DNA of 64,000 nucleotides from an uncultured Nitrospiraceae bacterium (GCA_963730935.1 CAVSTP010000003.1:542292-606291); one strand, 5' to 3'. Counted from the first letter of the stretch, positions 3,375 to 20,384 are shown. Made by a program: numbers and translations. The notes: a model not told the origin generated them from the letters alone.

Positions 3375-4784
3375 ATGAATGTTCGTGAGGCGTTAGAGTT
3401 TGCAAAAAAGAACAGGGTGCAGGTCGTGGACCTGAAGTTCGTCGATCTGATCGGGACGTGGCAACATTTCACGATTCCGGCCAACGAATTGACGGAAGAC
3501 CTGTTCAAGGATGGTTCCGGGTTGGACGGTTCGTCCATCCGCGGATGGAAAGCGATCAATAACAGTGACATGCTCGTTGTGCCTGACCCCGCCACGGCCT
3601 GCTTGGACCCCTTTACGTTGGTGCCGACGCTCAGCCTGATCGGCAATGTGGTCGATCCGATCTCGCGCGAGACCTATGAGCGCGATCCGCGCTACATCGC
3701 GCAGAAGGCGGAAAAATATCTCCAGAGCACCAAGATCGGGGACACATCGTACTGGGGGCCCGAAGCCGAATTCTTCATTTTTGATCACGCGCGGTACGAC
3801 CAGACGAGCCATAGCGGCTATTACCACATCGATTCAGATGAAGGCGTGTGGAACATGGGCCAGGACGGCGTCAACCTGGGCGGAAAGATCCGCCACAAGG
3901 AAGGCTACTTCCCGGTGCCGCCGACCGATACGCAACAGGACATCCGCAGCGAGATGATCCTGGAGATGGAGAAGGTGGGCATCGCCGTGGAGAAACATCA
4001 CCATGAAGTGGCCACCGCTGGCCAAGCGGAGATCGACATCCGGTTCGACTCACTGGTGCGCACGGCCGACAAAATGATGATGTACAAGTACATCGTCAAG
4101 AACGTCGCGCGCCGGCACGGCAAGACCGTCACCTTCATGCCGAAGCCGATCTTCGGCGACAACGGCAGCGGCATGCACACGCACCAGAGCATCTGGAAAG
4201 AGGGGAAGCCGCTCTTTGCCGGGAAGGAATACGCGGGGGTTTCGCAGATGTGTCTGCACTACATTGGCGGCATCCTCAAGCATGCGCCTGCATTGGCGGC
4301 AATCACCAACCCCACGACAAACTCCTACAAGCGGCTCACGCCGGGATTCGAAGCGCCTGTGTTGCTGGCCTATTCCAGCAGGAACCGATCCGCCGGCATC
4401 CGGATTCCGATGTATTCCCCGAGTCCCAAGGCGAAGCGGATCGAAGTCCGGTTCCCCGATCCTGGCGCCAATCCGTACCTGGCCTTCTCCGCCATGCTGA
4501 TGGCCGGCCTGGACGGCATCGAGAACAAAATCAATCCGGGCGAACCGGCCGAGAAGGACCTGTACGATTTGGAGGCCAAGGAAGCGGCCAAAATCCGGAC
4601 CATGCCTGGCAGCCTCGATGAAGCGCTCAGCAATCTGGAGAAGGATCACAAATTCCTCCTGAAAGGCGGCGTATTTACAGAGGATTTGATTGAGTCGTGG
4701 ATCGGCTACAAGCGGAGCAAGGAAGTTGATCCCATGCGGCTCCGGCCGCATCCCTACGAGTTTTTCCTGTACTACGACATCTAG
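3375..4784 (+). CDS. glnA: Glutamine synthetase type I
   Basis: 469 aa with hallmark GS-I blocks ([46 protein letters not shown]) and a DLYDLE segment equivalent to the adenylylation-site Tyr loop. RBS GGAGGAGGGG lies upstream. Confidence 0.97.
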
Positions 4785-5026: not shown

Positions 5027-5060
5027 CCCGGGGGATGTGGCTCAGGGAAAGGGGCGCATC

Positions 5061-6353
5061 ATGAGCGATCAAAATTCGGAAGGGTCAAATTCTTCCGAGC
5101 GGCACTTGGAGCGGACCCTCGATCAGGCCGTGACTGCCGCCGTGCTGCAGGCAGCCGGACCAACGCGGCGCCAATTGCTGATCGGTCTGGGAGCGGCGAC
5201 GCTCAGCGCCATGATCGCAGAGATGTTTCCCTTGGCTCGACTGAAGGCATTTGCGGCGGATCCAGTGGGCAAGCCGGAGAAGAAGGATGTCAGTATCGCA
5301 TTCATCCCCATTACATGTGGAACGCCGATCATCATGGCCGAGCCGCTAGGGTTCTATAAGAAGCACGGGTTGAACGCATCCGTGAAGCGAGCGGCGGGCT
5401 GGGCCATGATCCGCGACTGGGCGGTGAACAAGGAAGTCGATGCGGCCCATATGCTCACACCCATGCCTCTGGCGATTACGTTGGGCGCCGGCTCTCAGCC
5501 GACGCCGATCTACATGCCGGCCGTCGAGAACATCAACGGGCAGGCCATCACGCTGCACATCAAACACAAGGACGTGAAGACTGCGGCCGATATGAAGGGT
5601 TTTCGCTTCTGTGTTCCGTTTGATTTTTCGATGCATAACTATCTGCTGCGGTATTTTCTCGCGGACGGGGGAGTGCATCCGGATAAGGATGTTCAGATCC
5701 GGGTGGTTCCCCCGGCGGAGATGGTCGCAAATCTCAAAGCCGGCAATGTGGACGGCTATCTGGGCCCCGACCCATTCAATCAGCGCGCCGTGTATGAGAA
5801 TGCCGGGTTCATCTTCAAACTGTCCAAAGACATCTGGGACCGGCATCCCTGCTGCGCATTCACGGTCACGAAGGAATTCGCGACGACCTATCCCAATACG
5901 TTCCTTGCCATGTGGCGCGCCATCGTGGACGCGACGCACTACGCGTCGGATCCAGCGCATCGTAAAGAAATCGCCGCAGCGATCGCGCCGACCAACTATT
6001 TAAATCAACCAGTGACTGTGCTGGAGCAGGTTCTCACCGGCACATATGCCGATGGGCTGGGCAACATCCGGAAGGAACCGAACCGCATCGATTTCGATCC
6101 GTATCCCTGGCATTCGATGGCCATCTGGATTCTCACGCAGATGAAGCGCTGGGGGCATCTGAAGGGAGATGTCAATTACAAGACCGTGGCCGAGCAAGTC
6201 TACCGGGCGGCGGATTGCGACCGCATTGCCAAGGAGCTGGGCTATGCCACGCATCAATCGACGACGGCCAGGCACGTCATTATGGGGAAGGAATTTGACT
6301 CCAACAACGCCGACGCCTATGCGAAGAGTTTCAAAATTCACAGCATGGCCTGA
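5061..6353 (+). CDS. cynA: ABC transporter periplasmic substrate-binding protein, NrtA/CynA (nitrate/nitrite/cyanate) family, Tat-type signal
   Basis: Twin-arginine-like signal (PTRRQLLIGLGAATLSAMIA) and an NrtA/CmpA-like body by eye. It is followed by the matching permease, ATPase and cynS. ATG 5061 has a better RBS (GGGAAAGGGG) than the alternative GTG 5037. The substrate assignment is an inference from the cynS linkage. Confidence 0.8.
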   Translation: MSDQNSEGSNSSERHLERTLDQAVTAAVLQAAGPTRRQLLIGLGAATLSAMIAEMFPLARLKAFAADPVGKPEKKDVSIAFIPITCGTPIIMAEPLGFYKKHGLNASVKRAAGWAMIRDWAVNKEVDAAHMLTPMPLAITLGAGSQPTPIYMPAVENINGQAITLHIKHKDVKTAADMKGFRFCVPFDFSMHNYLLRYFLADGGVHPDKDVQIRVVPPAEMVANLKAGNVDGYLGPDPFNQRAVYENAGFIFKLSKDIWDRHPCCAFTVTKEFATTYPNTFLAMWRAIVDATHYASDPAHRKEIAAAIAPTNYLNQPVTVLEQVLTGTYADGLGNIRKEPNRIDFDPYPWHSMAIWILTQMKRWGHLKGDVNYKTVAEQVYRAADCDRIAKELGYATHQSTTARHVIMGKEFDSNNADAYAKSFKIHSMA

Positions 6354-6530
6354 GGAGAAGCGATGGAATCGATGAACCGTACGATGGTGCCAGAAGTCCC
6401 GACAGTCCCCGCCGAAGGTTCGATGAGGCTTCATTTCCAGCGGCTCCTGAAGGACTGGCCTTCATCCGCCTGGCAATGGGCGACGGGATGGCGAAGGACC
6501 CGGGAGACTCAGGCGGGGCGAGGAGGAGTC

Positions 6531-7418
6531 ATGGCCGCTCGGTCGCAAGGTAACCCGTGGTACATCGCGGGATTTGTGCTCGTCGTGTTCCTGTTGAGCT
6601 GGCATTTCTTTACGCTTCGCTCGAGCTTCGATCAACGGGGGTTGAGCGAAGAACAGCTGCAGATGATGGAGTTCAACGGCGACATCGTGCGAGCAGCGGA
6701 TGGAAGCTACGCCTGGAATCCGGAAAAGGAGAAAGTCAAAGGCATCCCGGGTCCGCTGGCGGTGCTCGAGAAGGCCCGCGAAGAGCTGTCAGAGGCGTTT
6801 GTGAAAAAGGGCACCAACGATCATGGCATCGCCTATCTGGTGCTCTACACCGTCTCGCGGTTTGCCGGCGGGTTCCTTGCGGCCTCCGTCATCGCGATCA
6901 TGGTGGGCGTCATTCTCGGGCTGAACAAAGTGCTCTTTCGTGCCGCGAATCCGTTTATCCAGATCATGAAGCCGATTTCTCCGCTGGCATGGATGCCCCT
7001 GTTGCTCTATACCGTGAAAGATCCAAAGTGGACGGCGGTCCTTGTCGTGTTCATGGCGGCCGTGTGGCCGACTCTGGCCACGACGGCTTTCGGGGTCAGT
7101 TCCTTGAGGAAGGAGTATTTGCACGTCGCCGCGATCGTGCAGCTCTCATGGTTTCAGCGGCTCTTCAAGGTCATTCTCCCGGGAGCGGCGCCTACGATCG
7201 TCAATGGACTGCGCATCTCCTTCGGAAGCGCGCTGGTCGCGGTGGTGCCTGCAGAGATGCTGCTCGGAGAACTGGGGGTGGGCTATTTGAGCTGGATCGA
7301 ATGGAACAACCTCGACATCGCCGGCGTCATTTTCGCGATCCTTGTCGTCGGGGTCGTCGGCGTGATTCTCGATGCGGGATTCAACAAACTGGCCGGCCTT
7401 GTCACCTATCAGGAGTAA
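6531..7418 (+). CDS. cynB: ABC transporter permease, NrtB/CynB family
   Basis: Polytopic membrane protein with the binding-protein-dependent transport signature region (ALVAVVPAEMLLGELGVGYL). ATG 6531 is preceded by AGGAGGAG and gives about 295 aa, typical for the family. The ORF is open from 6363, so a longer N-terminus cannot be excluded. Confidence 0.85.
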   Translation: MAARSQGNPWYIAGFVLVVFLLSWHFFTLRSSFDQRGLSEEQLQMMEFNGDIVRAADGSYAWNPEKEKVKGIPGPLAVLEKAREELSEAFVKKGTNDHGIAYLVLYTVSRFAGGFLAASVIAIMVGVILGLNKVLFRAANPFIQIMKPISPLAWMPLLLYTVKDPKWTAVLVVFMAAVWPTLATTAFGVSSLRKEYLHVAAIVQLSWFQRLFKVILPGAAPTIVNGLRISFGSALVAVVPAEMLLGELGVGYLSWIEWNNLDIAGVIFAILVVGVVGVILDAGFNKLAGLVTYQE

Positions 7419-7421
7419 CCC

Positions 7422-8282
7422 ATGTCCTTTCTCCAAATCGATCATGTCACGAAGTATTTTCCGAACCCGTCGGGTCCCGGCCAGGTGTGCATCTTCAAGG
7501 ATGCCACCATCAAGATCGAAAAAGGGGAGTTCGTGACCTGCATCGGCCATTCTGGCTGTGGAAAGAGCACGTTGCTCAACATCATTGCCGGGCTGGAAAC
7601 GCCCAGTGAGGGCGGCATCATCCTCAACGGCCGTGAAGCCAGCGGGCCGGGGTTGGACCGGATGGTGGTGTTCCAGAACTTCGCGCTGATGCCCTGGATG
7701 ACGGTATTTCAAAACATTGCGCTGGCCGTGCGTTCTGCCTATCCCGACTGGAGTCATGAACAAGTCACGGCCCATGTCAACAAATACATCGCGCTCGTCG
7801 GGCTCAAGGGAGCGGAGGACAAGCGGCCTACGGCCTTGTCGGGTGGCATGAAACAACGCGTCGGCCTCGCCCGGGCGTTTTCCATCGAGCCCAAGGTCCT
7901 CCTGCTGGACGAGCCATTCGCGCAAATCGACGCCTTGACCCGAGGCGTCATTCAAGAGGAATTGATTCAAATGTGGAACACCTCGAGAAATACGGTGTTC
8001 ATGGTGACGCACGACGTCGATGAGGCCATTCTGTTGTCCGACCGTATTCTCCTCATGACCAATGGCCCGGAAGCGCGAATCGCCGAGGTGGTGCACGTGT
8101 CGATTGCGCGGCCGCGGTCACGGGAAACGATCATCGAGCATCCGCATTACTATAAGATCAGGAACCATATCATCCACTTCCTCGTTCGCCACGCCAAACA
8201 TGAGACAGCGACATCGGGTCCATCCACGAATGGGACGCCTGTCATCGTCAATTTTGAGGAGGGATCGGTTGTGACGCATTAG
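7422..8282 (+). CDS. cynD: ABC transporter ATP-binding protein, NrtD/CynD family
   Basis: Walker A GHSGCGKST, ABC signature LSGGMKQRV, Walker B LLLDEPF. It starts 3 nt after the permease stop. Confidence 0.92.
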   Translation: MSFLQIDHVTKYFPNPSGPGQVCIFKDATIKIEKGEFVTCIGHSGCGKSTLLNIIAGLETPSEGGIILNGREASGPGLDRMVVFQNFALMPWMTVFQNIALAVRSAYPDWSHEQVTAHVNKYIALVGLKGAEDKRPTALSGGMKQRVGLARAFSIEPKVLLLDEPFAQIDALTRGVIQEELIQMWNTSRNTVFMVTHDVDEAILLSDRILLMTNGPEARIAEVVHVSIARPRSRETIIEHPHYYKIRNHIIHFLVRHAKHETATSGPSTNGTPVIVNFEEGSVVTH

Positions 8283-8388
8283 GCGTCGCGGCGAACGAAA
8301 TACCTCAGCAGGGCCGGCACAGCCAGACGGACATCGGATGCAAGAGGCAACAATCGTCAATCACCGTTTCCACCAATGAGGGGGACCT

Positions 8389-8829
8389 ATGGATAAAGAA
8401 AAGGTGCGGACCATTGTGAAAGAAAAGCGTCAGAAAAAGAATGTCACCATCGCCGAGGTCGCTAAAACCGTCGGCAAGAATCCGACCTTCGTGGCTGCCG
8501 CGCTGAATGGGAACCATCGCTTTACGACCGATGAAGCCAAGAAGGTCGGAGCGTTGCTGGAGCTGGACGGGGAAACGACGGCCGCTCTGAGCAAGTTTCC
8601 GGTTCGCACCGATTTTCCGAATGCGGCGGATCCGTTCAAATATCGGTTGTTGGAAATTATCGGAGTCTACGGCGATTCGTTGCGCGATCAGGCCAATGAA
8701 ATGTTCGGCGACGGCATCATGAGCGCGATCGATTTCACGCTGGACATGGAGAAAGTGACGGGGAGCCAAGGGGAAGCGCGCTGTAAGATCACCTTGAACG
8801 GGAAGTGGCTGGAGTACAAGACCTTTTGA
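8389..8829 (+). CDS. cynS: Cyanase (cyanate hydratase)
   Basis: 146 aa. An N-terminal HTH-like half (TIAEVAKTVGKNPTFVAAAL) is followed by the conserved cyanase C-terminal domain (DPFKYRLLEIIGVYG...GDGIMSAIDF...KITLNGKWLEYK). Confidence 0.95.
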   Translation: MDKEKVRTIVKEKRQKKNVTIAEVAKTVGKNPTFVAAALNGNHRFTTDEAKKVGALLELDGETTAALSKFPVRTDFPNAADPFKYRLLEIIGVYGDSLRDQANEMFGDGIMSAIDFTLDMEKVTGSQGEARCKITLNGKWLEYKTF

Positions 8830-8931
8830 GTCTTACTGGGAGGGGCTGAAGCCTCCATCGAAACGAGTTCATCGGTTGCGGAGCGGCTGAGACAGTGTCG
8901 TCTTTAGCCGGTCCGGGGCAAATGTGAACGG

Positions 8932-8980
8932 ACAAAGGCGTCCGTCATTCGAAGAGAATGGCGGACGCCTTTGTGTTTGC
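8932..8980 (+). terminator. Hairpin downstream of cynS and 33 nt upstream of the amt start (copy 3; its stem includes the whole 17-bp stem of copy 1 plus two extra outer pairs)
   Basis: 19-bp stem ACAAAGGCGTCCGTCATTC / GAATGGCGGACGCCTTTGT (8932-8950 / 8956-8974), 5-nt loop, then GTTTGC. Confidence 0.55.
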
Positions 8981-9012
8981 GGCGATCACCGGAGCAGGAG
9001 GGTGGGAAGCTT

Positions 9013-10335
9013 ATGCAGAGACAGTTCGGGAACGACGCATGGATGACCGCCCTTGTCCTTTGTGCAGGGGTGATGGCGCCGGAGACCGCTTCCGCGGAAA
9101 CGATTGCCGCGGCTACCGTAAGCGGGGCGGACACGGCCTGGGTGTTAGTTTCTGCCGCCCTCGTGCTGGCGATGACCGTCCCGGGATTGGCTCTGTTCTA
9201 TGGCGGGCTGGTGCGGAGCAAGAACGTGCTCGGCACGATCATGCACAGCTTTGTGATTCTCTGCCTCATCAGCCTCTTCTGGGTGTTGCTCGGCTATAGC
9301 CTGGCGTTTGGACCGGACGTCAAAGGCGTGATCGGCAGCCTGGCCTGGGTCGGCTTGAGCGGCGTCGGCTTATCGCCCCATGCGGTCTATGGCCCGACGA
9401 TTCCGCATCAAGCCTTCATGGTGTTTCAGTTGATGTTCGCCGCGATCACGCCCGCCCTCATTACCGGCGCGTTCGCAGAGCGGATGAAGTTTGGTGCGCT
9501 GATCCTGTTTGCACTGCTCTGGTCGCTCCTCATCTATTGTCCCATTGCGCACTGGATCTGGGGCGGTGGATGGCTGGCTGGACTTGGCGCGTTGGATTTT
9601 GCCGGCGGCGCAGTCGTGCACATTAGTTCGGGCATCAGCGCCTTGGTCTGCGCCCTGGTGCTGGGAAGGCGTCAGGGCTACGGCACGGACTATATGGCTC
9701 CGCACAATCTGCCGATGGTGCTGTTGGGAACAGGCCTCCTCTGGGTCGGATGGTTCGGCTTCAATGCGGGCAGCGCGCTCGGCGCCAATGAAACGGCAGT
9801 TGTGGCGTTCGTCGCCACCCACACCGCGGCGGTCACGGCTGCCTTGACCTGGATGACCGTGGAGTGGTGGCACCGCGGAACGCCGACGGTGCTTGGAATT
9901 GCGAGCGGTGCCGTGGCGGGACTGGCCATGGTCACGCCAGGCGCCGGATTCGTGACCCCCTTCTCGGCGCTTTTCATGGGAATGGCTGCTGGAGGGTTGT
10001 CGTATGTCGCCATCATGAAGAAGGGGGGGCTCGGCTATGACGATTCGCTGGATGTGGTCGGGATCCACGGCGTAGCGGGAGTCGGCGGCATTCTAATGAC
10101 GGGTCTCTTCGCCTCGAAAGCGGTCAATGCCGCAGGCGCTGATGGTCTCTTGCAAGGAAATGGCGCTTTTTTTGCGGTGCAGGCGCTGACAGTCGTTGTC
10201 GTTGGACTGTTCTCTGCCGGAGGCACATGGGTGATCCTCAAAGTCGTGGATCGGGCTGTCGGGTTGCGCGTGACGCCGGAGGAGGAGCGCATGGGTCTGG
10301 ATCTGAGTCAGCATAACGAGCGTGCCTATTCATAA
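9013..10335 (+). CDS. amt: Ammonium transporter (Amt family) with cleavable signal peptide
   Basis: Signal-like N-terminus (MTALVLCAGVMAPETASA). Amt blocks LVLAMTVPGLALFYGG, DFAGGAVVHISSG and DVVGIHGVAGVGG (twin pore His). C-terminal tail GLDLSQHNERAYS. RBS GGAGCAGGAGGG lies before ATG 9013. Confidence 0.95.
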   Translation: MQRQFGNDAWMTALVLCAGVMAPETASAETIAAATVSGADTAWVLVSAALVLAMTVPGLALFYGGLVRSKNVLGTIMHSFVILCLISLFWVLLGYSLAFGPDVKGVIGSLAWVGLSGVGLSPHAVYGPTIPHQAFMVFQLMFAAITPALITGAFAERMKFGALILFALLWSLLIYCPIAHWIWGGGWLAGLGALDFAGGAVVHISSGISALVCALVLGRRQGYGTDYMAPHNLPMVLLGTGLLWVGWFGFNAGSALGANETAVVAFVATHTAAVTAALTWMTVEWWHRGTPTVLGIASGAVAGLAMVTPGAGFVTPFSALFMGMAAGGLSYVAIMKKGGLGYDDSLDVVGIHGVAGVGGILMTGLFASKAVNAAGADGLLQGNGAFFAVQALTVVVVGLFSAGGTWVILKVVDRAVGLRVTPEEERMGLDLSQHNERAYS

Positions 10336-10362
10336 ACAGTCTCAGATGAAAGGAGGCGTAGC

Positions 10363-10593
10363 ATGATCATGTCTGAAGAACGGTCATGTGAAGGAACGAC
10401 ATGTGAAAGGCGGCTTTTGGAAATTCTGCGTCAACAAGGACCGCAGACGCTCGACACTTTGTGCGAACTGCCGGAATTCACGTGGGCGCAGGTACTGCTG
10501 GCCGTCGATCACCTGAGCCGCTCCAGGGATATCTTGCTGGAGCTGGTCGGACCGCGAGAGTACCAAGTCTCGTTGGCGGAAAGGCGAGCGTGA
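10363..10593 (+). CDS. Small (76 aa) hypothetical protein, winged-helix/FeoC-like by eye, translationally coupled to the downstream Amt
   Basis: Strong RBS AAAGGAGG 6 nt before the ATG. The sequence is helical and protein-like (RRLLEILRQQGPQTLDTLCELPEFTWAQVLLAVDHLSRSRDILLELVG) with three Cys. Its stop TGA (10591-10593) overlaps the GTG (10590) of the next gene. Confidence 0.65.
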   Translation: MIMSEERSCEGTTCERRLLEILRQQGPQTLDTLCELPEFTWAQVLLAVDHLSRSRDILLELVGPREYQVSLAERRA

Positions 10594-11756
10594 GGGCGCC
10601 AGGCGATCAGACGCTGTGGCTGTTGGTGTCCTCGACGCTGCTGGCGTTGGCCGTGCCAGGCGTCGCGCTGTTTTACGGCGGCATGGTGAGAAAGAAAAAC
10701 ATCATGAACACGATCGCGCTCCCGTTTGTCGCGCTGGCGGTCGTATCGCTCGCATGGACGCTCGTCGGCAGCGGCTGGGCAGCCTGGAACGGGGCCGAAC
10801 ACGCCGCGGGTCATGAAGAGGCGCTGCGTTCGTTGTATCGAGGCATGATGGCGTCGGTCGCCCTGGCTTTGGTGGCCGGAGGCATCGTTGAGCGTATCCG
10901 CTTTTCGTTCTTTCTCGTCTTCGGACTCTGTTGGGTGGCAACGGTCTATGTTCCATTAGCGCAATCGTTATGGGGAGTGAACGGGTGGCTGGCAAATCTC
11001 GGCAGCCTGGACTTTGCGGGGGGCGCAGTGATCCACATTAGTGCCGGTGTTAGCGCGCTGGTGATGGCGATCACCATCGGGCCGCGGCATGGATATGGAC
11101 GCATCGACATGATGCCGAACCATTTGCCGTTCTCCTTCTGCGGGGCCGCGTTCATGTGGGTGGGCTGGTTCGGATTCACCGGAGCCGCCGCATCAGTGTC
11201 GATGGCGGTGGTGACCAGCGCCTTTGTGGCCATCCAGTTGTCGACGGTCGCCGCGGCGCTTGCCTGGATGGCAGTCGAGTGGCTCCAGCGGGATAAGCCG
11301 ACGGCCTTGGGAGCCATGAGCGGCGCCGTCGCAGGCCTGGTGGCCATCGCGCCGGCGGCAGGCTACGTGAGCCCGTTGTCTTCGCTCGTGATCGGCGTAG
11401 GAGCGGGAGGCCTCTGCTACATGGTGGTCAATTACGTAAAGCTCATTCTGGGGTACGACGACTCCCTGGATGTCTTCGGAATGCACGGGGTTGGAGGCAC
11501 CTGGGGGATGATTGCGACCGGTTTGTTTGCATCGACTGAAGTCAACGCAGGGGGAAGCGACGGGTTGTTCTACGGATATCCATATCAGTTTTTCGCTCAG
11601 GTGGTGGCCGCCCTTGCCGCGTGGGTCGTGGCCGGCGTGATGACCTGGCTGTTGGTGAAGGTTCTCACGATGATCGTCGCGCCGCGCGTCGACGAAGAGG
11701 CGGAACGGATGGGATTGGATCTTCATCAACACGGTGAGAAAGGCTACACGGGGTAA
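10590..11756 (+). CDS. amt: Ammonium transporter paralog (Amt family) without signal peptide
   Basis: GTG 10590 is the only start that preserves the conserved TM1 (DQTLWLLVSSTLLALAVPGVALFYGGMVRKKN). Amt blocks DFAGGAVIHISAG and DVFGMHGVGGTWG are present. The part of the ORF upstream of 10590 is Arg/Gly-rich and not protein-like. Confidence 0.9.
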   Translation: MRAPGDQTLWLLVSSTLLALAVPGVALFYGGMVRKKNIMNTIALPFVALAVVSLAWTLVGSGWAAWNGAEHAAGHEEALRSLYRGMMASVALALVAGGIVERIRFSFFLVFGLCWVATVYVPLAQSLWGVNGWLANLGSLDFAGGAVIHISAGVSALVMAITIGPRHGYGRIDMMPNHLPFSFCGAAFMWVGWFGFTGAAASVSMAVVTSAFVAIQLSTVAAALAWMAVEWLQRDKPTALGAMSGAVAGLVAIAPAAGYVSPLSSLVIGVGAGGLCYMVVNYVKLILGYDDSLDVFGMHGVGGTWGMIATGLFASTEVNAGGSDGLFYGYPYQFFAQVVAALAAWVVAGVMTWLLVKVLTMIVAPRVDEEAERMGLDLHQHGEKGYTG

Positions 11757-11760
11757 GGCC

Positions 11761-12207
11761 ATGGCCATTGTACACGACGATATCGGGCGGCGCCGTTTCC
11801 TGAGCCAGGCCGTGATGGGATTTGGGATGCTGTTCGGCATTGGCACGCTCGGCTTCCGCTTCCTGCAGTTTCTCTTACCGACACAGACCCGCAGGGAATC
11901 GGAGGCCGTGCTGATCGGCGCGGAGTCCCGCATTCCGCTTGGAGAAGCCGTGCCCATGGATCTTGGCGGCCGCAAGATTCTGGTGTTGAGGACAGAAGAC
12001 GGTGTCGCGGCCTTTTCTCGACGCTGCACGGACCTGGGCTGCCTCGTGTCGTGGAACAAGGAGCGGTCGCAGTTCATCTGCCCCTGCCATCAGGGCACGT
12101 TCGACCGCACCGGTCTGAACATTGCCGGGCCTCCTCCCCGGCCGTTGGACCGGTTGCAGATCGTCAAACGTGGCGAGCAGTTATACGTGAATATTCAGGC
12201 GACGTAG
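11761..12207 (+). CDS. Rieske-type [2Fe-2S] protein with Tat signal; first cluster box reads C-T-D-L-G-C instead of C-x-H-x-G-C
   Basis: RRRFLSQAVMGFGML is a Tat motif plus TM anchor. Box 1 is CTDLGC (12025-12042) and box 2 is CPCHQG (12079-12096). It starts 4 nt after the amt stop and is followed by cytochrome b. Confidence 0.85.
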   Translation: MAIVHDDIGRRRFLSQAVMGFGMLFGIGTLGFRFLQFLLPTQTRRESEAVLIGAESRIPLGEAVPMDLGGRKILVLRTEDGVAAFSRRCTDLGCLVSWNKERSQFICPCHQGTFDRTGLNIAGPPPRPLDRLQIVKRGEQLYVNIQAT

Positions 12208-12247
12208 CGAGACTCCGAAATCATCACCTATTCCGTAGGGTGAACGC

Positions 12248-13273
12248 GTGGCATCGACTGTTTCCGAGAATGCGAAACAAGAACCGGGCGAAAAATCCTG
12301 GGTGGATTACATCCAGAAGGACCTGCCCCAGCATCTTGATTGGTGGCCCTATACGCTGGGAGCGCTGCCGCTGACCCTATTCGGCCTCTTGGTCGGGACC
12401 GGTCTGCTGCTGACGTTTTATTACGTGCCGTCACCGGAACGAGCCTATGAGAGCGTCGATGAGATTACCAACGAGATCTACCTCGGGTGGTTCGTGCGGG
12501 GCCTGCACAAGACCTCGGTGGATCTCATGATCCTGTTCTTGTTCTTCCATGTCATCCGAGTGTTCATCACGCGTGCCTATCGAACGCCCGGCGAGCTGAA
12601 GTGGGTGAGCGGCTCGATCGTGCTGTTCGTCACGCTGGCGATGGGGTTCACTGGCTATTCGCTCATCTTCGACAACGTCTCCTATTGGGGCATGACGGTC
12701 GTGACCAACATGATCGGGACGCTTCCGGTAATCGGCACCCCGCTGCTCCATCTGTTGCGAGGTGGTGAGGAAGTCTCGGGCGTCACGTTATTGCGACTGT
12801 ACGACCTCCATACCAAGCTGCTGCCCGTGTTATTGGGCGGGCTGGTCCTCGGCCATGTGGTGATCGTACGCCTGTTGGGGTTTGCGGAGGTGAAAGGCAG
12901 CCGCGGGTTCCATTCCTTCTACCCCGAGCACACCTTGAAGATGGGCGCCATGGCGACGGGACTGCTTTTGTTAATCGTCAATATCGTCATGATCTTTCCG
13001 CCGCTGTTGGGACCGCCGGCTAACGTCCAGGAGGTGGCATCAGACGTGTCGCCCCCCTGGTATTTTTCCGCGCCGTTCATGTGGATTACCTTGCTGCCTG
13101 GCCCTCTGGCGCTGTGGAGCCTCCTCGGCTTTGCCGGGCTCTTTGTCGTGTATCCCTTTCTGGACCGGGTGCTGGATGAACGCGGATGGCCGATGGAGAT
13201 CGTCAATGCCCTTGTGGCAGCCACCGTGGTCTGCGCGATGGCAGGACTGATGTATCTCGATACGCTGATGTGA
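12248..13273 (+). CDS. Cytochrome b (b6-like, fused with a subunit-IV-like C-terminal part)
   Basis: Helix B His pair is spaced 14 residues (GLHKTSVDLMILFLFFH) and helix D His pair 15 (LHTKLLPVLLGGLVLGH), the b6-type spacing. The Qo motif is PPWY, a PEWY variant. GTG start. Confidence 0.88.
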   Translation: MASTVSENAKQEPGEKSWVDYIQKDLPQHLDWWPYTLGALPLTLFGLLVGTGLLLTFYYVPSPERAYESVDEITNEIYLGWFVRGLHKTSVDLMILFLFFHVIRVFITRAYRTPGELKWVSGSIVLFVTLAMGFTGYSLIFDNVSYWGMTVVTNMIGTLPVIGTPLLHLLRGGEEVSGVTLLRLYDLHTKLLPVLLGGLVLGHVVIVRLLGFAEVKGSRGFHSFYPEHTLKMGAMATGLLLLIVNIVMIFPPLLGPPANVQEVASDVSPPWYFSAPFMWITLLPGPLALWSLLGFAGLFVVYPFLDRVLDERGWPMEIVNALVAATVVCAMAGLMYLDTLM

Positions 13274-13321
13274 AGATTGGGCGCTCAGCCGTCCGCTTTT
13301 GATGGCTTACAAGGAGGTTAC

Positions 13322-14752
13322 ATGGACGAGCGCAATAGACAGCCTGATGAACGTGAGGACGAACATGCCCGTTCGAGCAACGGCAAGAAAAACTTCGCCC
13401 GCTATATGATCGGCGGGCTCTGCCTGATCCTCTTTCTCGCACTCACGGGCGTCGGCTATGTCCAGGTCGAAGAGCGGCGAGGCGGCGGTCTCCGGCCGTT
13501 TGTTTCCGGAGAAAACAAGAAATGCATCGACTGCCACATGGCCAAAGACGTCGCCGTGGGGGGCATCAACGATTGGAAAGTCAGCCGCCATGCGCCGAAG
13601 GGGATCGGCTGCGTCGAATGCCATCGGGCTGAGAAGGGCGAAGCGGACGCCTACGACCACGAGGGATTTCTCATCTCGACGCTCGTCACTCCCAAGGATT
13701 GCATGCGATGCCACGATCGAGAGGCCAAGGAATTTGCCAAGTCCCATCACGCCAAAGCTGCGCAGTTTACCGGCTCATTGGACAATTTTCTGGGCAACGT
13801 CGTCGAAGGTCCGGAGATCGTGACCACCGGGTGCGCCGGCTGTCACGGCAGCGTGGTGAAGGTGATGGAGAAGGGCAAGCTCCATCCGGCCACCTGGCCC
13901 AACTCCGGCATCGGGCGGGTGAATCCCGACGGCTCGAAAGGCACCTGCTCCGCTTGTCATGCACGGCATAGCTTCTCGGTAGCCCAAGCCAGGCAGCCGG
14001 AGAGCTGCGGCCGCTGCCACATGGGGCCCGACCATCCGCAGATTGAAGCCTATTATGAAAGCAAGCATGGCGTCATGTACGAGGCCAACAAGGAGAAGAT
14101 GAAGCTCGCGGACCCGACGGAGAAGTGGCATCCAGGCAAGGATTATCTGTATCCCACCTGCGCTACCTGTCACATGAGCGCGACGGGGACACAGGAGGTG
14201 ACGCACGATGTGGGAGACCGTATCAGCTGGACGCTACGGCCGGTGATCTCCACGCGTCTCGAGAACTACGAAGACCGGCGCAAAGCCATGCGGCAAGTCT
14301 GCGCGTCGTGCCATAGCGAACAGATCGTGGACCGGTTCTTTACCTCGATGGACCAGGGCATCAACCTGTACAACGACAAATTCGGCAAACCTGCGAAAGT
14401 AGCGATGGACCAGCTGCTGGCCATGAAGAAGCTTACGCCAACGCCATACGACGAAAAGATCGAATGGATCTTCTATGAATTGTGGCACCACGAGGGACGG
14501 CGCGCGCGGCACGGGCTGTCCAAGATCGCGCCTGATTACGTCCACTGGCAGGGGTTCTACGAAGTGGCCAAGACGTTCTACACCAAGTTTCTCCCGCTGG
14601 TGCGGGAGCTGTCGCCGCAGGTGGCGGAGGAGATGCTTCGTCATGAGAGCCACCGCTGGATCGAAAAAGGCATGACAAAGGAAGAAATTGGCCAGATGTT
14701 GGAGTTCTATAACAAGGAAATGCAGGGAAAGAGGGGAGGAGTGGATGGGTAG
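13322..14752 (+). CDS. Membrane-anchored octaheme cytochrome c, hydroxylamine-oxidoreductase (HAO)-like family; candidate periplasmic nitrite reductase
   Basis: Eight CxxCH motifs (CIDCH, CVECH, CMRCH, CAGCH, CSACH, CGRCH, CATCH, CASCH), an N-terminal TM helix (YMIGGLCLILFLALTGVGYV) and an HAO-family-like WHHEGRRARHG block. RBS AAGGAGG lies before ATG 13322. Confidence 0.85.
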   Translation: MDERNRQPDEREDEHARSSNGKKNFARYMIGGLCLILFLALTGVGYVQVEERRGGGLRPFVSGENKKCIDCHMAKDVAVGGINDWKVSRHAPKGIGCVECHRAEKGEADAYDHEGFLISTLVTPKDCMRCHDREAKEFAKSHHAKAAQFTGSLDNFLGNVVEGPEIVTTGCAGCHGSVVKVMEKGKLHPATWPNSGIGRVNPDGSKGTCSACHARHSFSVAQARQPESCGRCHMGPDHPQIEAYYESKHGVMYEANKEKMKLADPTEKWHPGKDYLYPTCATCHMSATGTQEVTHDVGDRISWTLRPVISTRLENYEDRRKAMRQVCASCHSEQIVDRFFTSMDQGINLYNDKFGKPAKVAMDQLLAMKKLTPTPYDEKIEWIFYELWHHEGRRARHGLSKIAPDYVHWQGFYEVAKTFYTKFLPLVRELSPQVAEEMLRHESHRWIEKGMTKEEIGQMLEFYNKEMQGKRGGVDG

Positions 14753-14769
14753 GCTCCACGCTGTTCCCC

Positions 14770-14798
14770 TTGAGCAACGTCCGCGGTTGCGCTATCCT
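14770..14798 (+). promoter_or_regulatory. Candidate sigma70-type promoter for the CBS-domain gene
   Basis: TTGAGC (14770-14775), 17-nt spacer, TATCCT (14793-14798), 27 nt before ATG 14825. Confidence 0.3.
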
Positions 14799-14824
14799 GC
14801 GTCTCGCCATTCAAGAGGGACGCA

Positions 14825-15580
14825 ATGCCAAAACGGGTTCGCAGTGGGTTAACACGTACTGACATTCTTCACCGCTACGTGGAGCGGTTCAGACAACAAC
14901 TGATCAAGCTGCGGCTGTTCCTCTCCCGCAAGCGGAGCACGACGACCATTGAGGACTTTGATGAGGCGGCGGAAGAGCTGATCAGCCAGGTGTTCGGAGC
15001 TGCCTCGGATGAAGCCGAGGCCTATTTCTACGCTAAGAGTGGGGAGTCCGCCTTATTGCCTGAGGAGGCCCAGGAAAACGGAACGCACGACGTTGAGCGT
15101 GAAAGCCTCCAACAACGCCGGCAAGTATTGGAAAGTTGCCTGGCCGATCTCGAGATGCGTCGCGTGGTGCAGGCAGCACGACATGGCAACGGCAAAGAAT
15201 TTTCAAAGTCGAAAGTCGAAGACTACATGTCCCACGACGTGCGCAGCATCCATCGAGCGGCCACCATTAAGGAAGCCGGGCTGCTGTTTCAGAAATACAA
15301 GGTGGGTTCGCTGATCGTGGACGACGGATCCCGCTATATCGGCATCGTCACGGATTCCGATCTCAGTCGAAAAGCCGTCGCCAAGGGTCTGGACCCAAAC
15401 ACGACGACCGTCACGTCCTGTATGAGCAAATCGCTCGTGACGATCGAAGAAGACGAGTTGCTGTCGGAAGCCATGGGGCTGATGAAAAAGCAGGGGATCC
15501 GTCACCTGCCCGTGACCGCCGACGGCACGATCATCGGCGTGTTGTCCGTCGCGGACCTCCTTCGCGCCTTGACCGACTGA
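14825..15580 (+). CDS. CBS-domain pair protein with an uncharacterised ~125-aa N-terminal region
   Basis: The C-terminal half has two CBS repeats (VEDYMSHDVRSIHRAATIKEAGLLFQKYKVGSLIVDD... / CMSKSLVTIEEDELLSEAMGLMKKQGIRHLPVTADGTIIGVLS). Confidence 0.8.
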   Translation: MPKRVRSGLTRTDILHRYVERFRQQLIKLRLFLSRKRSTTTIEDFDEAAEELISQVFGAASDEAEAYFYAKSGESALLPEEAQENGTHDVERESLQQRRQVLESCLADLEMRRVVQAARHGNGKEFSKSKVEDYMSHDVRSIHRAATIKEAGLLFQKYKVGSLIVDDGSRYIGIVTDSDLSRKAVAKGLDPNTTTVTSCMSKSLVTIEEDELLSEAMGLMKKQGIRHLPVTADGTIIGVLSVADLLRALTD

Positions 15581-15599
15581 CCGGCCTCCTGGTCAGTCG
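15574..15599. terminator. Hairpin overlapping the stop codon of the CBS gene
   Basis: 9-bp stem CGACTGACC / GGTCAGTCG with an 8-nt loop. No clear T-run follows, so the function is uncertain. Confidence 0.3.
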
Positions 15600-15926
15600 C
15601 GCGCAGAGACTTCTTCCTCAAAAGCCTGAACCTCCCCATCAATTGTTTGGCTACGGCGACCCGGCGCGATCATCGGCCCGAGCGTTGGCGCCGATAGAAT
15701 CGGACACCACACCGATTGCAGTGCCAGGGGGGAACATACCCAACAGACGGAAGAGAAAATCCTGCCAACTGTGACGGGTGGCACGATGGCATTCTTCTGA
15801 TGAACAGTACCGGCAGTGCATCCGGGACGCTGGGCTGTATCTGCCGCCTCTCTCCAGCATGAGCCACTCGGTTGTCACTCGCTCCGCTCGCGCCGCCTGG
15901 AGGATCGGCCGCGTGAGATAAGAAGG

Positions 15927-16328
15927 TTAAGAAGAGACGGGAGTCAGCATGTTCGCATCGCGAGCCAGCACCCATTTGCCGTGGTGCTTCTTGAGCACCG
16001 ATAGCGTATGACCCGCACGGGTCACGGATGAGCCGCCGGCCGACGGTGTCATGACGACTGAAAGCTTGGTCCAGATGAAGGCCCACTCGCCGAGAACGGT
16101 GATTTCTTGGATCTCGCTGGTCCCGTCGAACTTCGGTGCGTCTTTTCCCATTTGAGCACCTGCTGCCGCCGCAAAGTCGGCCTTGCGCATGGGTGGCTGG
16201 CCAGGCATGAGAAATACGACGTCATCGGACATCAAGGATAGAACCTTCTCGATGTCACCGGCCTTAGTGGCCGCGATCCAGGTGGACACTAATTCACGAA
16301 TCTGCTGCTCATCGCTCTGAGTGGACAT
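15927..16328 (-). CDS. NTF2-fold protein (SnoaL-like / DUF4440 family)
   Basis: 133 aa. The pattern IRELVSTWIAATKAGDIEKVLSLMSDDVVFLMPGQPPM ... KKHHGKWVLARDANM is typical of DUF4440/SgcJ-type NTF2-like proteins. Confidence 0.7.
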   Translation of the reverse strand: MSTQSDEQQIRELVSTWIAATKAGDIEKVLSLMSDDVVFLMPGQPPMRKADFAAAAGAQMGKDAPKFDGTSEIQEITVLGEWAFIWTKLSVVMTPSAGGSSVTRAGHTLSVLKKHHGKWVLARDANMLTPVSS

Positions 16329-16503: not shown

Positions 16504-17559
16504 TCAAGCTTTCCTGGGGGACAGCCTCTCCTCTTTCCCAAAATTCCAGATCGTTTCCGCTTTGCTGCCGATGTACCAGAAGCTGGCTGCCAGCAGCGCG
16601 AAGAAAATCGCCTTATGGAGGTTGTTCCAAAATAATTCGAAGAAGCGGGTATAGAGGTTGATGCCCAGGAATGTGACGCCGAAGCCTTTGGTGATATCGT
16701 TGTCGTGCCGCAAGCCGTGATAGATCGCCCACCCCGCCACCGCTGCGAACAGGATCGACCAATGGAACAGCTCGATCTGCTTCACCCGTTCCCACGCATG
16801 CATGTCTCCATAATTGCCGAATATGGACATGATCCATAACGCAATGAAGAGATAGAGCAGGCCCATGACCAGCGTGCTGCGATGGAATCGTGCCGCCACC
16901 GGATGGGGTTCCAAGGCCAACGCGCATCCCGTCAGCACGGTGCCGAAGAGGACGAAGCGTAGCGGATAGTTCATTCCCAGATAATAGGCTCCCCAGCCGG
17001 ACATATAGCCGGTCTCCGTTCCCATCCAGCCGCCGAGTGAAGCCAGTGCAAACACCCAGATCAGATTCGATTCCAGCGCGACGCCGAGGATGGCGTAGAC
17101 GAGAAACGACAGCAGCAGCAACAGCGAATAGTGGCCGCTGCCCGTATCAAGCGCCGCCCCGAGCTGTGATACAGCGCCGGCGGTCGTCAGCACGCCGAGA
17201 AAGAAGATCGCTTCGTTGCGATAGACACGATCCGGAGCCTGTTGCCGCTTGCTGAGTCCCAGGCGGTACAATCCTGCCGCCACGACAGCCAGGACCGCGC
17301 ATTTAAGCAAGGGAGGGGCCTTGAAGATAACTTCGAGCAAATCTTGAAGCATCCGATCGGAGAGCGCCGCACTGACCGACGAAATGATCGAGAAGAGCGC
17401 AATCCAGAACGAGTACTTGGCCAACTTCCGCCAATCGAAATACTGCACTTCAATCGTGCCGGCAAGTATTGCGGCCTGCGCCTCAGGAATCACGCCGTCC
17501 TGTTTCCATCGTGCGATGGCCTCTTGGACCACGGCAGCCTGCTTGCGGGGAAGCTTCAT
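16504..17559 (-). CDS. Polytopic membrane protein (DUF2157-like)
   Basis: 351 aa. A soluble N-terminal helix (VQEAIARWKQDGVIPEAQAAIL) is followed by about 9 predicted TM segments. The family assignment is by recollection only. Confidence 0.6.
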   Translation of the reverse strand: MKLPRKQAAVVQEAIARWKQDGVIPEAQAAILAGTIEVQYFDWRKLAKYSFWIALFSIISSVSAALSDRMLQDLLEVIFKAPPLLKCAVLAVVAAGLYRLGLSKRQQAPDRVYRNEAIFFLGVLTTAGAVSQLGAALDTGSGHYSLLLLLSFLVYAILGVALESNLIWVFALASLGGWMGTETGYMSGWGAYYLGMNYPLRFVLFGTVLTGCALALEPHPVAARFHRSTLVMGLLYLFIALWIMSIFGNYGDMHAWERVKQIELFHWSILFAAVAGWAIYHGLRHDNDITKGFGVTFLGINLYTRFFELFWNNLHKAIFFALLAASFWYIGSKAETIWNFGKEERLSPRKA

Positions 17560-19108: not shown

Positions 19109-19210
19109 TTTACTACAGGAAAGACACTCAGTCCTCTGAAAGTTTTGTTTTGTCTCCAGAAAAAATAGATTACAGAAATTTTACATCATCCTTACCAAGG
19201 ACCGATTGAA

Positions 19211-19238
19211 TCCGAATGACTTTCTGATTACATTCGGA
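19211..19238. promoter_or_regulatory. Perfect 8-bp inverted repeat in the AT-rich divergent intergenic region
   Basis: TCCGAATG-N12-CATTCGGA ends 3 nt before ATG 19242. It could be an operator or a 5' hairpin. Confidence 0.25.
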
Positions 19239-19241
19239 CGC

Positions 19242-20384
19242 ATGCATGACATTCTAAAATTTACACTCTTCTGTGTGTTGTTCCTTGGTCACGACTCGGT
19301 CTGGGCAGGCGGGGACGAATGGAAAACGAGCCCAAAACCGGCGGACACGTCCTGGTACCAGGCCAGGCTCACCCCAATGTCCGATGGTGTTCCCATGGCG
19401 CCGCCCAACGTGCGGAATCTGACGCCCGATACCGATCGGCCGCGCACACAAGGGATCCTGGCATCGACGACGTGGCTCAAAGGCGCATTCTCTACGGAAA
19501 CGGAAGTCGCGACCAATCAAGCGATCTCTCCGGGAGACGATCCCTCAAGTCGCATGATGCGACTCGGCGTCAGCGGCTCGGCGGGGCTCGTGCGCTACGG
19601 CATGACCTATCGCACGGCGGATCAGACTTTCTCTCAGACACCAGGCCAAGAGCAGAGGGAAGCCTGGGGAGAGTGGAAGAACGGAGCGATGGCGATCCGC
19701 AGCGCCGTCGGACAACGAAGTCAACTCGACGCCGACGCTACAGGCAATCGAGTGCAACAGAGTTACAACCGGATCGATGTGTTATGGGGCAAGCCTGCAT
19801 GGCCGCATCTCGCACTCAAATATGCGCAGAATGCTGCGAGCAACACGATAGATCCCTTGAGCCTGGTTCCGCAGAGGGCCGATCATCACCGGGTCGAGGC
19901 AGTGGTCGGCTATGGCGGTGCGATGTGGAAGGCCAGCCTGGCCTCCAGCTATGGCCTTGAAACCGATCTCATGAACCATGGCGCGGAGAGACAAGTCAAA
20001 ACGCAATCCATCACGGCCTCGTTGCGTCCGCATGAGTCGCTCACCATCACGCCCACGCTTGGCTATCGTGCCGAGCAGCAAGAATGGTCGGGCGGGCGGA
20101 TAGATTCGCCATCAGCATCCCTCTCCATGAATTACACACAGAGCCCGCGGATGAACTTTTCTGCGACGGGGAACTACTCTGGCCTGCGATCCACCGATAA
20201 GCTCATCGAGTTGGACAGCATCGGCGGGAAAGGCATCGTCTCATTGGAACTCGAACCGGTAAAAGACTGGAAACCGCAGCTCTCTCTGGAGGGTGGCTAT
20301 AATCTACAAGTCAATCGACTCATGCCCTCGGCTCAAACCGAAAACCTCTCCGGCCTCCTGCGCCTCGTCCTGGCCACGATGTAG
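19242..20384 (+). CDS. Hypothetical secreted protein, possibly an outer-membrane beta-barrel
   Basis: Signal peptide MHDILKFTLFCVLFLGHDSVWA. The body shows alternating polar/hydrophobic beta-like segments rich in Y/G/S/T. No family recognised. Confidence 0.55.
   Translation: MHDILKFTLFCVLFLGHDSVWAGGDEWKTSPKPADTSWYQARLTPMSDGVPMAPPNVRNLTPDTDRPRTQGILASTTWLKGAFSTETEVATNQAISPGDDPSSRMMRLGVSGSAGLVRYGMTYRTADQTFSQTPGQEQREAWGEWKNGAMAIRSAVGQRSQLDADATGNRVQQSYNRIDVLWGKPAWPHLALKYAQNAASNTIDPLSLVPQRADHHRVEAVVGYGGAMWKASLASSYGLETDLMNHGAERQVKTQSITASLRPHESLTITPTLGYRAEQQEWSGGRIDSPSASLSMNYTQSPRMNFSATGNYSGLRSTDKLIELDSIGGKGIVSLELEPVKDWKPQLSLEGGYNLQVNRLMPSAQTENLSGLLRLVLATM

Follow-up and report, generated by a model that had tools for sequence, protein, structure and literature searches.

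An Asp-for-His change in the Rieske protein of the Amt-linked octaheme cytochrome cluster of Nitrospira

A five-gene unit at positions 10363-14752 of a 64,000-nucleotide (nt) stretch of DNA from an uncultured Nitrospiraceae bacterium (GCA_963730935.1, CAVSTP010000003.1:542292-606291; the whole stretch is hereafter called the window) encodes a small winged-helix protein, an Amt-family ammonium transporter (Amt3), a Rieske-type iron-sulfur protein, a cytochrome b and an octaheme cytochrome c of the kind named ONR in Nitrospira. The source is a lineage II Nitrospira. Both the gene cluster and the functional hypothesis attached to it are already known, since the orthologous genes of N. moscoviensis and the hypothesis were published in 2015 and have been discussed repeatedly since. 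The one feature that a specialist might find surprising concerns the redox partners of the octaheme: the Rieske protein has Asp at the position of a canonical His ligand, the cytochrome b has PPWY in place of PEWY at the quinol-oxidizing (Qo) site, and both changes are tied to the adjacency of an Amt gene. The Asp-for-His change is apparently unreported, and a literature search of limited coverage found no mention of a natural Asp-ligated bc-type Rieske protein.

The change lies in box I of the Rieske protein, which reads C89-T-D91-L-G-C94 (CTDLGC, 12025-12042, with Asp91 encoded by GAC at 12031-12033) where the canonical motif is CxHxGC; box II is C107-P-C109-H110 (CPCH, 12079-12090). Asp91 aligns to the His ligand of the solved Rieske proteins 9rk4, 9rk3 and 8hn2. 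The only His residues in the chain are His5 and His110, and just the latter lies in the soluble domain. The canonical Cys2His2 ligand set is therefore incomplete, while the Rieske fold, the anchor with its twin-arginine translocation (Tat) motif and the adjacency to a cytochrome b gene are all present. A first-pass annotation of this DNA had described a Tat-exported Rieske protein. The Tat motif is indeed there (GRRRFLS, 11785-11805, followed by a hydrophobic stretch or transmembrane helix), but the protein is not canonical, and the absence of the first His ligand from CTDLGC had been overlooked. The closest solved Rieske proteins are Kuste4569 (E 8.6e-20) and Kustd1480, from the Rieske/cytochrome b complexes of the anammox bacterium Kuenenia, and these nearest characterised relatives have midpoint potentials above +300 mV. 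From general iron-sulfur chemistry, an anionic Asp ligand would be expected to lower the potential. Residues of box II that raise the potential in bc1 Rieske proteins are altered as well (CPCHQGTF, against CPCHGSHY in bovine bc1).

A scan for octaheme homologs, with one genome retained per species, gave 68 loci. Nitrospira or Nitrospiraceae genomes account for 62 of them, with ONR identities of 81-99%; the closest copy is that of the metagenome-assembled genome (MAG) HEB_FP_1_bin.25 (99%), and the N. moscoviensis copy is 82% identical. CTDLGC is found in every intact Nitrospira copy of the Rieske gene (approximately 46 loci, N. moscoviensis included), as well as in 120 of the 120 best matches, out of 418 proteins at E ≤ 1e-15, to a Deltaproteobacterial homolog (52-100% identity). 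Given this conservation across Nitrospira loci and database homologs, the motif is not a sequence error. Among the 150 nearest 50%-cluster representatives, drawn from 1.84 billion proteins, 137 have His at this position and one has Asp, that one being the cluster that contains the present Rieske family; the remaining 12 are fragments, frameshifted or unparsed.

One could suppose that no cluster is left in the Asp-type Rieske protein, or that a different one is held by the two 'disulfide' Cys residues, so that the protein persists as a structural subunit only and electrons reach the octaheme by another path. The single His left in the soluble domain would fit such a loss, and the small subunit of nitrite reductase, NirD, has a Rieske fold without a cluster. 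What speaks against it is the pattern of conservation: homologs of 52-100% identity without exception keep His110 and the four Cys, and the Asp91 position is itself invariant, which indicates selection for a specific ligand. A Tat motif, typical of exported proteins that contain cofactors, is also retained. We therefore regard loss or replacement of the cluster as very unlikely.

The cytochrome b shows the second change. It is of the fused b6 plus subunit-IV type, with seven hydrophobic transmembrane helices, and its heme-ligand His residues have the b6-type spacing (His87/101, 14 apart, and His188/203, 15 apart); no N-terminal Cys for heme ci is present in its sequence. The His spacings and the PPWY motif had both been reported in the first-pass annotation and both are present. 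The motif, at 13052-13063, lacks the carboxylate found at position 2 of PEWY. Such a PPWY motif is rare but not without precedent, having been reported for bc1 complexes in Acidithiobacillus ferrooxidans. It occurs in 54 Nitrospira cytochrome b copies and in 7/7 of the non-Nitrospira loci with an Asp-type Rieske protein, whereas PEWY is found in both (2/2) of the ONR-linked non-Nitrospira loci in which the Rieske protein is of the His type. Hence the Asp-type Rieske protein, PPWY and an Amt gene directly upstream covary completely, in a non-Nitrospira sample of 9 loci only. In effect, a carboxylate would have been lost from the cytochrome b side of the Qo site and gained on the iron-sulfur protein.

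The arrangement of the loci outside Nitrospira follows the same division. All seven Asp-type loci have the order PII - Amt (- Amt) - Rieske - cytochrome b - ONR, under mixed taxonomic labels that include Deltaproteobacteria and Thermodesulfobacteriota and, for one locus, a metagenome record from a hydrothermal vent with the tag GAMMA26. On the upstream side, 4/7 also have genes for an ANTAR response regulator and a GATase, and a NirB-like gene follows ONR in 1/7. Neither His-type locus has an Amt gene, and one of the two consists of Rieske - cytochrome b - ONR alone. These comparisons of gene order support the view that the Amt link is ancient and tracks the Asp-type Rieske protein, and functional coupling of Amt and reductase would thus be better supported than by a single window. 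In this Amt-linked subtype the Qo site is remodelled, and the iron-sulfur centre from which the heme chain is supplied probably has a lower, re-tuned potential as a result.

Taken further, these observations lead to a broader proposal that we put forward tentatively and would rate at somewhat below even chances. The Asp-type proteins may constitute a previously undescribed natural class of Rieske protein, with Cys2-His-Asp ligation (or Cys3-His if a 'disulfide' Cys steps in), that co-evolved with the change from PEWY to PPWY. Its potential and proton coupling would be re-tuned to feed quinol electrons into a nitrite-reducing heme chain, and it would be the hallmark of a separate, widespread enzyme system in Nitrospira and several other phyla, an 'ammonium loop' made up of an assimilatory quinol:nitrite reductase and an Amt.

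Three loci illustrate other arrangements of ONR homologs. In the second of the two His-type loci, from a Wallbacteria MAG (GCA_016213845.1, locus L072, 4554-10475), a His-type Rieske gene, a PEWY cytochrome b gene, ONR, NapA and NapB stand in this order behind a sigma-54 two-component system; here the core module seems to have a respiratory form that takes nitrate to ammonium. In a Burkholderiales MAG (GCA_035499735.1, locus L071, 1219-7347), an ONR homolog of 52% identity overlaps by 7 nt the preceding NiFe hydrogenase operon, made up of a small subunit, an Fe-S/CCG protein and a HoxH-like large subunit, with no Rieske or cytochrome b gene there; judging by its neighbours, this may be a hydrogen-driven version of the ONR reductase. 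On a Deltaproteobacterial-type contig (locus L075, 7827-10661), two tandem ONR paralogs of 453 and 450 amino acids (aa) follow the Rieske and cytochrome b genes.

The octaheme protein has exactly eight CxxCH motifs (13523-14314) and a single N-terminal transmembrane helix (residues 27-48, approximately 13400-13465) with no obvious cleavage site. The motif count and a match to PF13447 uphold the earlier description of an anchored eight-heme protein of the HAO family. Its nearest relative in the PDB is IhOCC of Ignicoccus hospitalis (4qo5; 4e-44 in a single-sequence search and 5.6e-68 with a profile of the 37-member family), and HAO, HOX, HDH and the reductive HAOr of Kuenenia stuttgartiensis rank after it at 1e-22 to 4e-33 (HAO approximately 5e-33) in searches of the PDB with the family profile or the sequence. 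The match to NrfA is marginal (E ~1e-3, over a short stretch only). An AlphaFold 2 model of ONR (mean predicted local distance difference test score, pLDDT, 74) gave a Foldseek order that agrees with the sequence ranking: IhOCC (4qo5) at a TM-score of 0.62, Kuenenia HAOr (6h5l) at 0.52, the oxidative HAO, HOX and HDH at 0.46-0.50, and the CxxCK-type TvNiR at approximately 0.2 with E above 0.3. Asp237-His238, invariant in 37 homologs, aligns to the distal pair Asp267-His268 of NeHAO, and the position of HAO Tyr334 is occupied throughout the ONR family by an invariant Arg306, a residue that would be suited to anion binding. IhOCC is described as having no P460 cross-link (PMC9250108), and the cross-link is likewise absent from HAOr (KsHAOr), a reductase (PMC8042395). 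Profile search and fold search thus supply the family placement that the first-pass annotation had called for, and together they suggest that, within the HAO family, ONR belongs with the cross-link-less proteins IhOCC and HAOr.

Unrelated enzymes of the CxxCK family, TvNiR and TaNiR, also go by the name 'ONR'. Membership of the present protein in the CxxCK-type ONR/NrfA group was considered and is ruled out by the absence of any CxxCK motif from its sequence and by the TM-score of approximately 0.2 to TvNiR; the 'octaheme nitrite reductase' of Trichlorobacter and Desulfurivibrio (TaNiR), also considered as a relative, was rejected since it belongs to the CxxCK family.

Amt3 has as its best PDB match A. 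fulgidus Amt-1 (8e-82). It is 45% identical to Amt1, the transporter encoded just upstream of the unit, and approximately 50% identical to the Rieske-adjacent Amts of the outgroup loci. Every ortholog retains the twin His of the pore and its Asp, D160 in E. coli (LDFAGGAVIH, FGMHGVGG), and most also keep the Phe of the inner gate and the Trp corresponding to Trp148 (WFGF, LWG..GW), so that by its pore residues Amt3 looks like a working channel. The earlier description of an Amt without a signal peptide stands, because the start codon sits approximately 8 residues ahead of the first transmembrane helix.

The function of this cluster has been discussed for some time. Koch 2015 is credited by citing papers with the proposal that ONR replaces NirA in N. 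moscoviensis, the products of the neighbouring Rieske and cytochrome b genes passing it electrons from the quinone pool; the replacement of NirA had also been mentioned in the first-pass annotation, and the quinol-to-ammonium hypothesis has been restated since (PMC6311188, PMC12342949). The ONR-bearing Nitrospira in question have no NirA, yet grow on nitrite as sole nitrogen source. Expression of onr in N. japonica was confirmed by reverse transcription PCR (Ushiki 2018, PMC5767232), and it is Ushiki 2018 that two later papers cite for a drop in this expression with added ammonium. In N. moscoviensis with nitrite as sole nitrogen source, the ONR and Rieske/cytochrome b genes were highly and similarly expressed (Mundinger 2019, PMC6606698); the supplement to that paper lists 381/552/770/712/774 for NITMOv2_1277-1281 against 147 for the upstream AmtB_2 (column units unconfirmed), and describes NITMOv2_1277 as a hypothetical gene of 231 nt that ends 4 nt into amtB. 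A 2019 review (Koch 2019) includes a figure of the ONR region and discusses a third, divergent Amt in its text, and a 2025 comparative study reports that petBC adjoins ONR in most ONR genomes, with NapC instead in lineage IV. The suggestion of the first-pass annotation that the present sequence adds the coupling to an Amt and a small winged-helix protein is therefore not sustained: the same five genes, 4-nt overlap included, are NITMOv2_1277-1281, and they appear in published genomes and tables.

Our own reading of the cluster agrees with this hypothesis, and we consider it probable. The Rieske protein and the seven-helix b6-type cytochrome b would together act as a membrane quinol oxidase. 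The periplasm-facing, N-terminally anchored octaheme would replace cytochrome c1/f and take electrons from the Rieske chain, and its five-coordinate heme 4, with the distal Asp-His pair and the invariant Arg, would reduce nitrite, most likely to ammonium, with six electrons. Such ammonium would serve assimilation when nitrite is the only nitrogen source; because it would appear outside the cytoplasmic membrane it would have to be imported, and Amt3 would bring it into the cytoplasm. The small winged-helix protein would be a lineage-specific accessory, either a regulator or a partner of Amt3. We infer that the three redox proteins form one complex, with quinol as donor, ammonium as product and Amt3 as importer. 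This sequence from quinol to nitrite to ammonium to Amt is the best supported of the readings considered, matching as it does the N. moscoviensis/N. japonica hypothesis and the conserved order Amt - Rieske - cytochrome b - ONR. The main uncertainties of the model are the product (ammonium or nitric oxide, NO) and the predicted complex.

A number of points weigh against this reading. The first concerns the Qo site, which need not work in the usual way with one canonical ligand missing from the Rieske centre. In A. ferrooxidans, where PPWY is also reported, the bc1 complexes run in the reverse, uphill direction. The present module might do likewise, with the multiheme protein collecting periplasmic electrons and the Rieske/cytochrome b pair pushing them uphill into the quinone pool by means of the proton-motive force. 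Pro at position 2 of the Qo motif (PPWY, APWY) is found both in A. ferrooxidans and in Geobacter, in a bc complex for which a reversed Q cycle has been proposed; reverse electron flow is required by nitrite oxidizers, and a lower-potential Rieske centre would ease uphill transfer. The genomic context tells against reversal, being exclusively one of nitrogen assimilation (PII, Amt, glnA, ANTAR regulator) in non-nitrifiers too. So do the reported lowering of onr expression by ammonium and the two further complex III copies of Nitrospira that are assigned to respiration. We judge a reverse module to be the most improbable of the alternatives considered here.

The second point is the product. KsHAOr, the second-closest solved structure to ONR (6h5l) and the nearest relative with published biochemistry, makes NO from nitrite in vivo, and ammonium only with strong artificial reductants (PMC8042395). 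No enzyme of the ONR clade appears to have been purified, so that the earlier remark that the complex had no biochemical characterisation still appears to be true of the literature, and the 2025 comparative paper still terms the electron-donor role for ONR a hypothesis. Moreover, alignments of ONR to HAO and HDH (C-terminal-fragment phmmer, and the 37-sequence profile against the PDB) end near HAO residue 405, short of the cross-link Tyr467, the position of which can therefore not be mapped on ONR; the fold search gives no residue mapping, and the conserved Tyr413 and Tyr420 of the ONR family lie in the unaligned C-terminal helices. The octaheme could be an NO-forming nitrite reductase, or a reductase that detoxifies hydroxylamine or NO, with the adjacent Amts reflecting a general organisation of nitrogen clusters only. 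We think this unlikely, given that IhOCC rather than HAOr is the closest solved relative, that εHao enzymes without the cross-link Tyr reduce nitrite and hydroxylamine in vitro, and that all the Asp-type loci examined, under several taxonomic labels, have an Amt gene immediately before the Rieske gene. Growth on nitrite as sole nitrogen source without NirA and the reported response of onr to ammonium argue in the same direction, that is, for ammonium made by ONR from nitrite.

The third point lies in Amt3 itself. Amt1 and the outgroup Amts keep the outer-gate motif FQxMFAAI and the recruitment motif FNAGS (the sites of E. coli F107 and S219) without change. In Amt3 orthologs both motifs are degenerate; they read YRGMMASV and FTGAA here and vary from one ortholog to another. 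The periplasmic mouth of Amt3 must therefore be under different constraints, which could reflect high local ammonium beside the reductase, docking to the reductase or a sensing role. Amt3 might not be a bulk importer but serve in sensing, as a scaffold for regulation or as a partner to which the reductase docks; the translationally coupled winged-helix protein would then be its cytoplasmic partner, in the position of PII, and not a DNA-binding regulator. Besides the degenerate vestibule, this idea draws on gene order, as PII precedes the Rieske-upstream Amt(s) outside Nitrospira and the small protein precedes Amt3 within it; on the 4-nt overlap of the small gene and Amt gene, which is kept in N. 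moscoviensis; and on the NITMOv2_1277 transcript, which at approximately two thirds of the Amt level seems high for a repressor. On the other side, a conducting channel requires just those residues that are strictly conserved in the pore (Asp, twin His) or kept by most orthologs at the inner gate (Phe, Trp); the small protein, for its part, has a predicted winged-helix fold of the ordinary DNA-binding kind, and in four loci the small gene lies downstream of ONR, away from Amt3. We consider a non-importing Amt3 unlikely, if less so than the other alternatives; it would be compatible with the explanation given above for the redox part. Finally, a promoter and terminator scan of 8200-16000 gave nothing above shuffled expectation that would delimit the unit.

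The five open reading frames (ORFs) of the unit are all on the plus strand, separated by -4, 4, 40 and 48 nt; this tight packing, as first described, was reproduced from the start codons. The true order is Rieske, cytochrome b, octaheme, as in the title of the first-pass annotation, and not that of its description, which had placed the Rieske gene immediately before the octaheme gene. Pfam and NCBIfam support 4/5 genes, the exception being the small winged-helix protein (76 aa, 10363-10593, ortholog of NITMOv2_1277), whose gene is preceded by a strong ribosome-binding site, AAAGGAGG. Amt3 (388 aa, 10590-11756; PF00909 E 3.6e-94, TIGR00836 above cut-off; ortholog of NITMOv2_1278, AmtB_3) starts at a GTG within the GTGA of the small gene's stop, giving the 4-nt overlap. 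The Rieske-type subunit (148 aa, 11761-12207; PF00355 E 2.4e-11) follows after 4 nt, the cytochrome b (341 aa, 12248-13273; PF00033 2e-46 and PF13631) after 40 nt, and the octaheme cytochrome c (ONR/OCC, 476 aa, 13322-14752; PF13447 E 5e-32; ortholog of NITMOv2_1281 and NSJP_2412) after 48 nt, behind an AGGAGG ribosome-binding site.

Among the five proteins, the small one is a Nitrospira-only family by all indications of the sequence databases: 174 proteins belong to it, all named ones are from Nitrospira, and none has a Pfam domain. Seventeen columns are invariant, including Cys34, Asp49 and His50. An AlphaFold 2 model (pLDDT 80) has the H-H-H-E-E topology of a winged-helix fold, and Foldseek returned Zalpha, MarR and ArsR winged helices at TM-scores of 0.65-0.75, every one with E of 0.01 or higher. 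A FeoC-like metal-binding role, prompted by the N-terminal Cys residues, was rejected, as Cys9 and Cys14 are not conserved and only Cys34 is. A profile hidden Markov model of the family has matches beside the module in approximately 38 loci, in most of them directly upstream of Amt3, the place taken by PII before the Rieske-preceding Amt(s) in other phyla. In L023, L035, L038 and L046 (approximately 9400-9900) the region downstream of ONR holds a diverged homolog of the small gene, which either replaces the copy upstream of Amt3 or is present besides it. By its predicted structure and position, the small protein may be a lineage-specific accessory, either a predicted regulator or a partner of Amt3.

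The unit stands within a nitrogen-assimilation supercluster conserved in Nitrospira and already known from canonical members of the genus, amt - glnB - glnD - glnA - nrtABD - cynS - amt - [five-gene unit]. In the window this comprises the 3' end of a third Amt gene (16-252), glnB, encoding PII (317-655), glnD (664-3336), glnA (3375-4784), an nrtA/B/D-like ABC transporter (5037-8282) and a cyanase gene, cynS (8389-8829). The Amt1-type transporter follows (AmtB_2 ortholog; 8971-10335, plus strand; PF00909 4e-121), ending 27 nt upstream of the unit; it has an N-terminal signal-like extension of approximately 45 aa and canonical vestibule motifs, and is syntenic in nearly all loci. Downstream, 72 nt after ONR, lies a gene for a CBS-pair protein (251 aa, 14825-15580, plus strand; PF00571) with an N-terminal region of approximately 120 aa of unknown function. 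Searches with the window proteins (tblastn) found the order nrtB - nrtD - cynS - Amt1 - (small ORF) - Amt3 - Rieske - cytochrome b - ONR - (CBS) kept in approximately 45 Nitrospira loci. Of the Nitrospira loci that reach that far, most have the CBS gene straight after ONR or at a distance of a few kb, and a DUF1348 gene intervenes in N. moscoviensis. In the scan of 8200-16000, terminator-like sites were absent from the gaps separating the five genes and from that between ONR and the CBS gene; given this and the gap of 27 nt to Amt1, the transcription unit may exceed five genes.

Searches for other regulatory elements gave little. The sigma-54 consensus had 12 matches in the window against 18 expected, that is, below chance; a sigma-54-like -24/-12 element (TGGCGC-N5-TTGCG, 2 mismatches) at 10161-10176, within the Amt1 coding region and approximately 190 nt upstream of the small gene, is not significant. 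Rfam and tRNA scans of the whole window gave no match. Further along, two ORFs had no Pfam match at E ≤ 1e-4: one at 16504-17559 on the minus strand (351 aa, multi-pass membrane-like) and one at 19206-20384 on the plus strand (392 aa).

The cluster is the presumed route to nitrogen from nitrite, without the ferredoxin-dependent NirA, for many nitrite-oxidizing Nitrospira, organisms of great importance in soils and in the treatment of wastewater. Such a route would alter the energetics of growth on nitrite, because quinol and not low-potential ferredoxin is drawn on. Finding the cluster once more adds little, since the idea is ten years old and still without biochemistry. If Asp91 does ligate the cluster, a redox centre that ranks among the most thoroughly studied in bioenergetics would turn out to have a natural variant, and the combination of CTDLGC, PPWY and an adjacent Amt would be a marker by which assimilatory modules could be told in metagenomes from respiratory ones (Nap-linked, PEWY, His-type).

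Several known systems resemble the unit in part. The closest are N. moscoviensis NITMOv2_1277-1281, gene-for-gene orthologs with identities of 50/68/80/84/82%, and the NSJP_2412 cluster of N. japonica; these lie in the same supercluster and have CTDLGC and PPWY in common with the window, which comes from a different species. In N. moscoviensis approximately 250 nt separate the upstream Amt gene from the unit, against 27 nt here, and ONR is followed by the DUF1348 gene and not by the CBS gene. IhOCC shares the HAO-type heme arrangement without P460 and is membrane-associated, as ONR is membrane-anchored, but it is an archaeal protein of approximately 25% identity with an insertion of approximately 80 residues after heme 7, and the literature on IhOCC, as far as available to us, mentions no Rieske/cytochrome b or Amt partner. 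In K. stuttgartiensis, Kuste4569-4574 likewise encode an octaheme of the HAO family alongside a Rieske protein and a b6-like cytochrome b. Where the window protein has Asp91, the Rieske proteins of Kuenenia have the canonical His ligand, and their complexes include further multihemes and an NAD(P) oxidoreductase as additional subunits and a split b6/subunit IV, where the window cytochrome b is fused. Kuenenia HAOr (Kustc0457/8, 6h5l) is soluble and NO-forming and is paired with a diheme protein, whereas the ONR of the window is predicted to be membrane-anchored.

Other periplasmic multiheme enzymes compare by function. TvNiR, TaNiR and NrfAH reduce nitrite to ammonium with electrons from the quinol pool, as is proposed for ONR, through an NrfH/NapC-type link in place of the Rieske/cytochrome b pair. 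Epsilonproteobacterial εHao, likened here by description only, belongs to the HAO family and has no cross-link Tyr, in a dissimilatory or detoxifying context. Canonical bc1 and b6f complexes share with the unit the Rieske protein with its Tat motif and transmembrane anchor, the four heme-b His residues at b6-type spacing, the ef-loop xxWY and a c-type cytochrome gene next in line. The unit differs from them in the Asp of box I, the Pro in place of the PEWY Glu, the fusion of b6 with subunit IV and the absence of a heme ci Cys. Furthermore, the acceptor in bc1 and b6f is cytochrome c1 or f, while in the window unit the predicted acceptor is itself an enzyme, the octaheme reductase.

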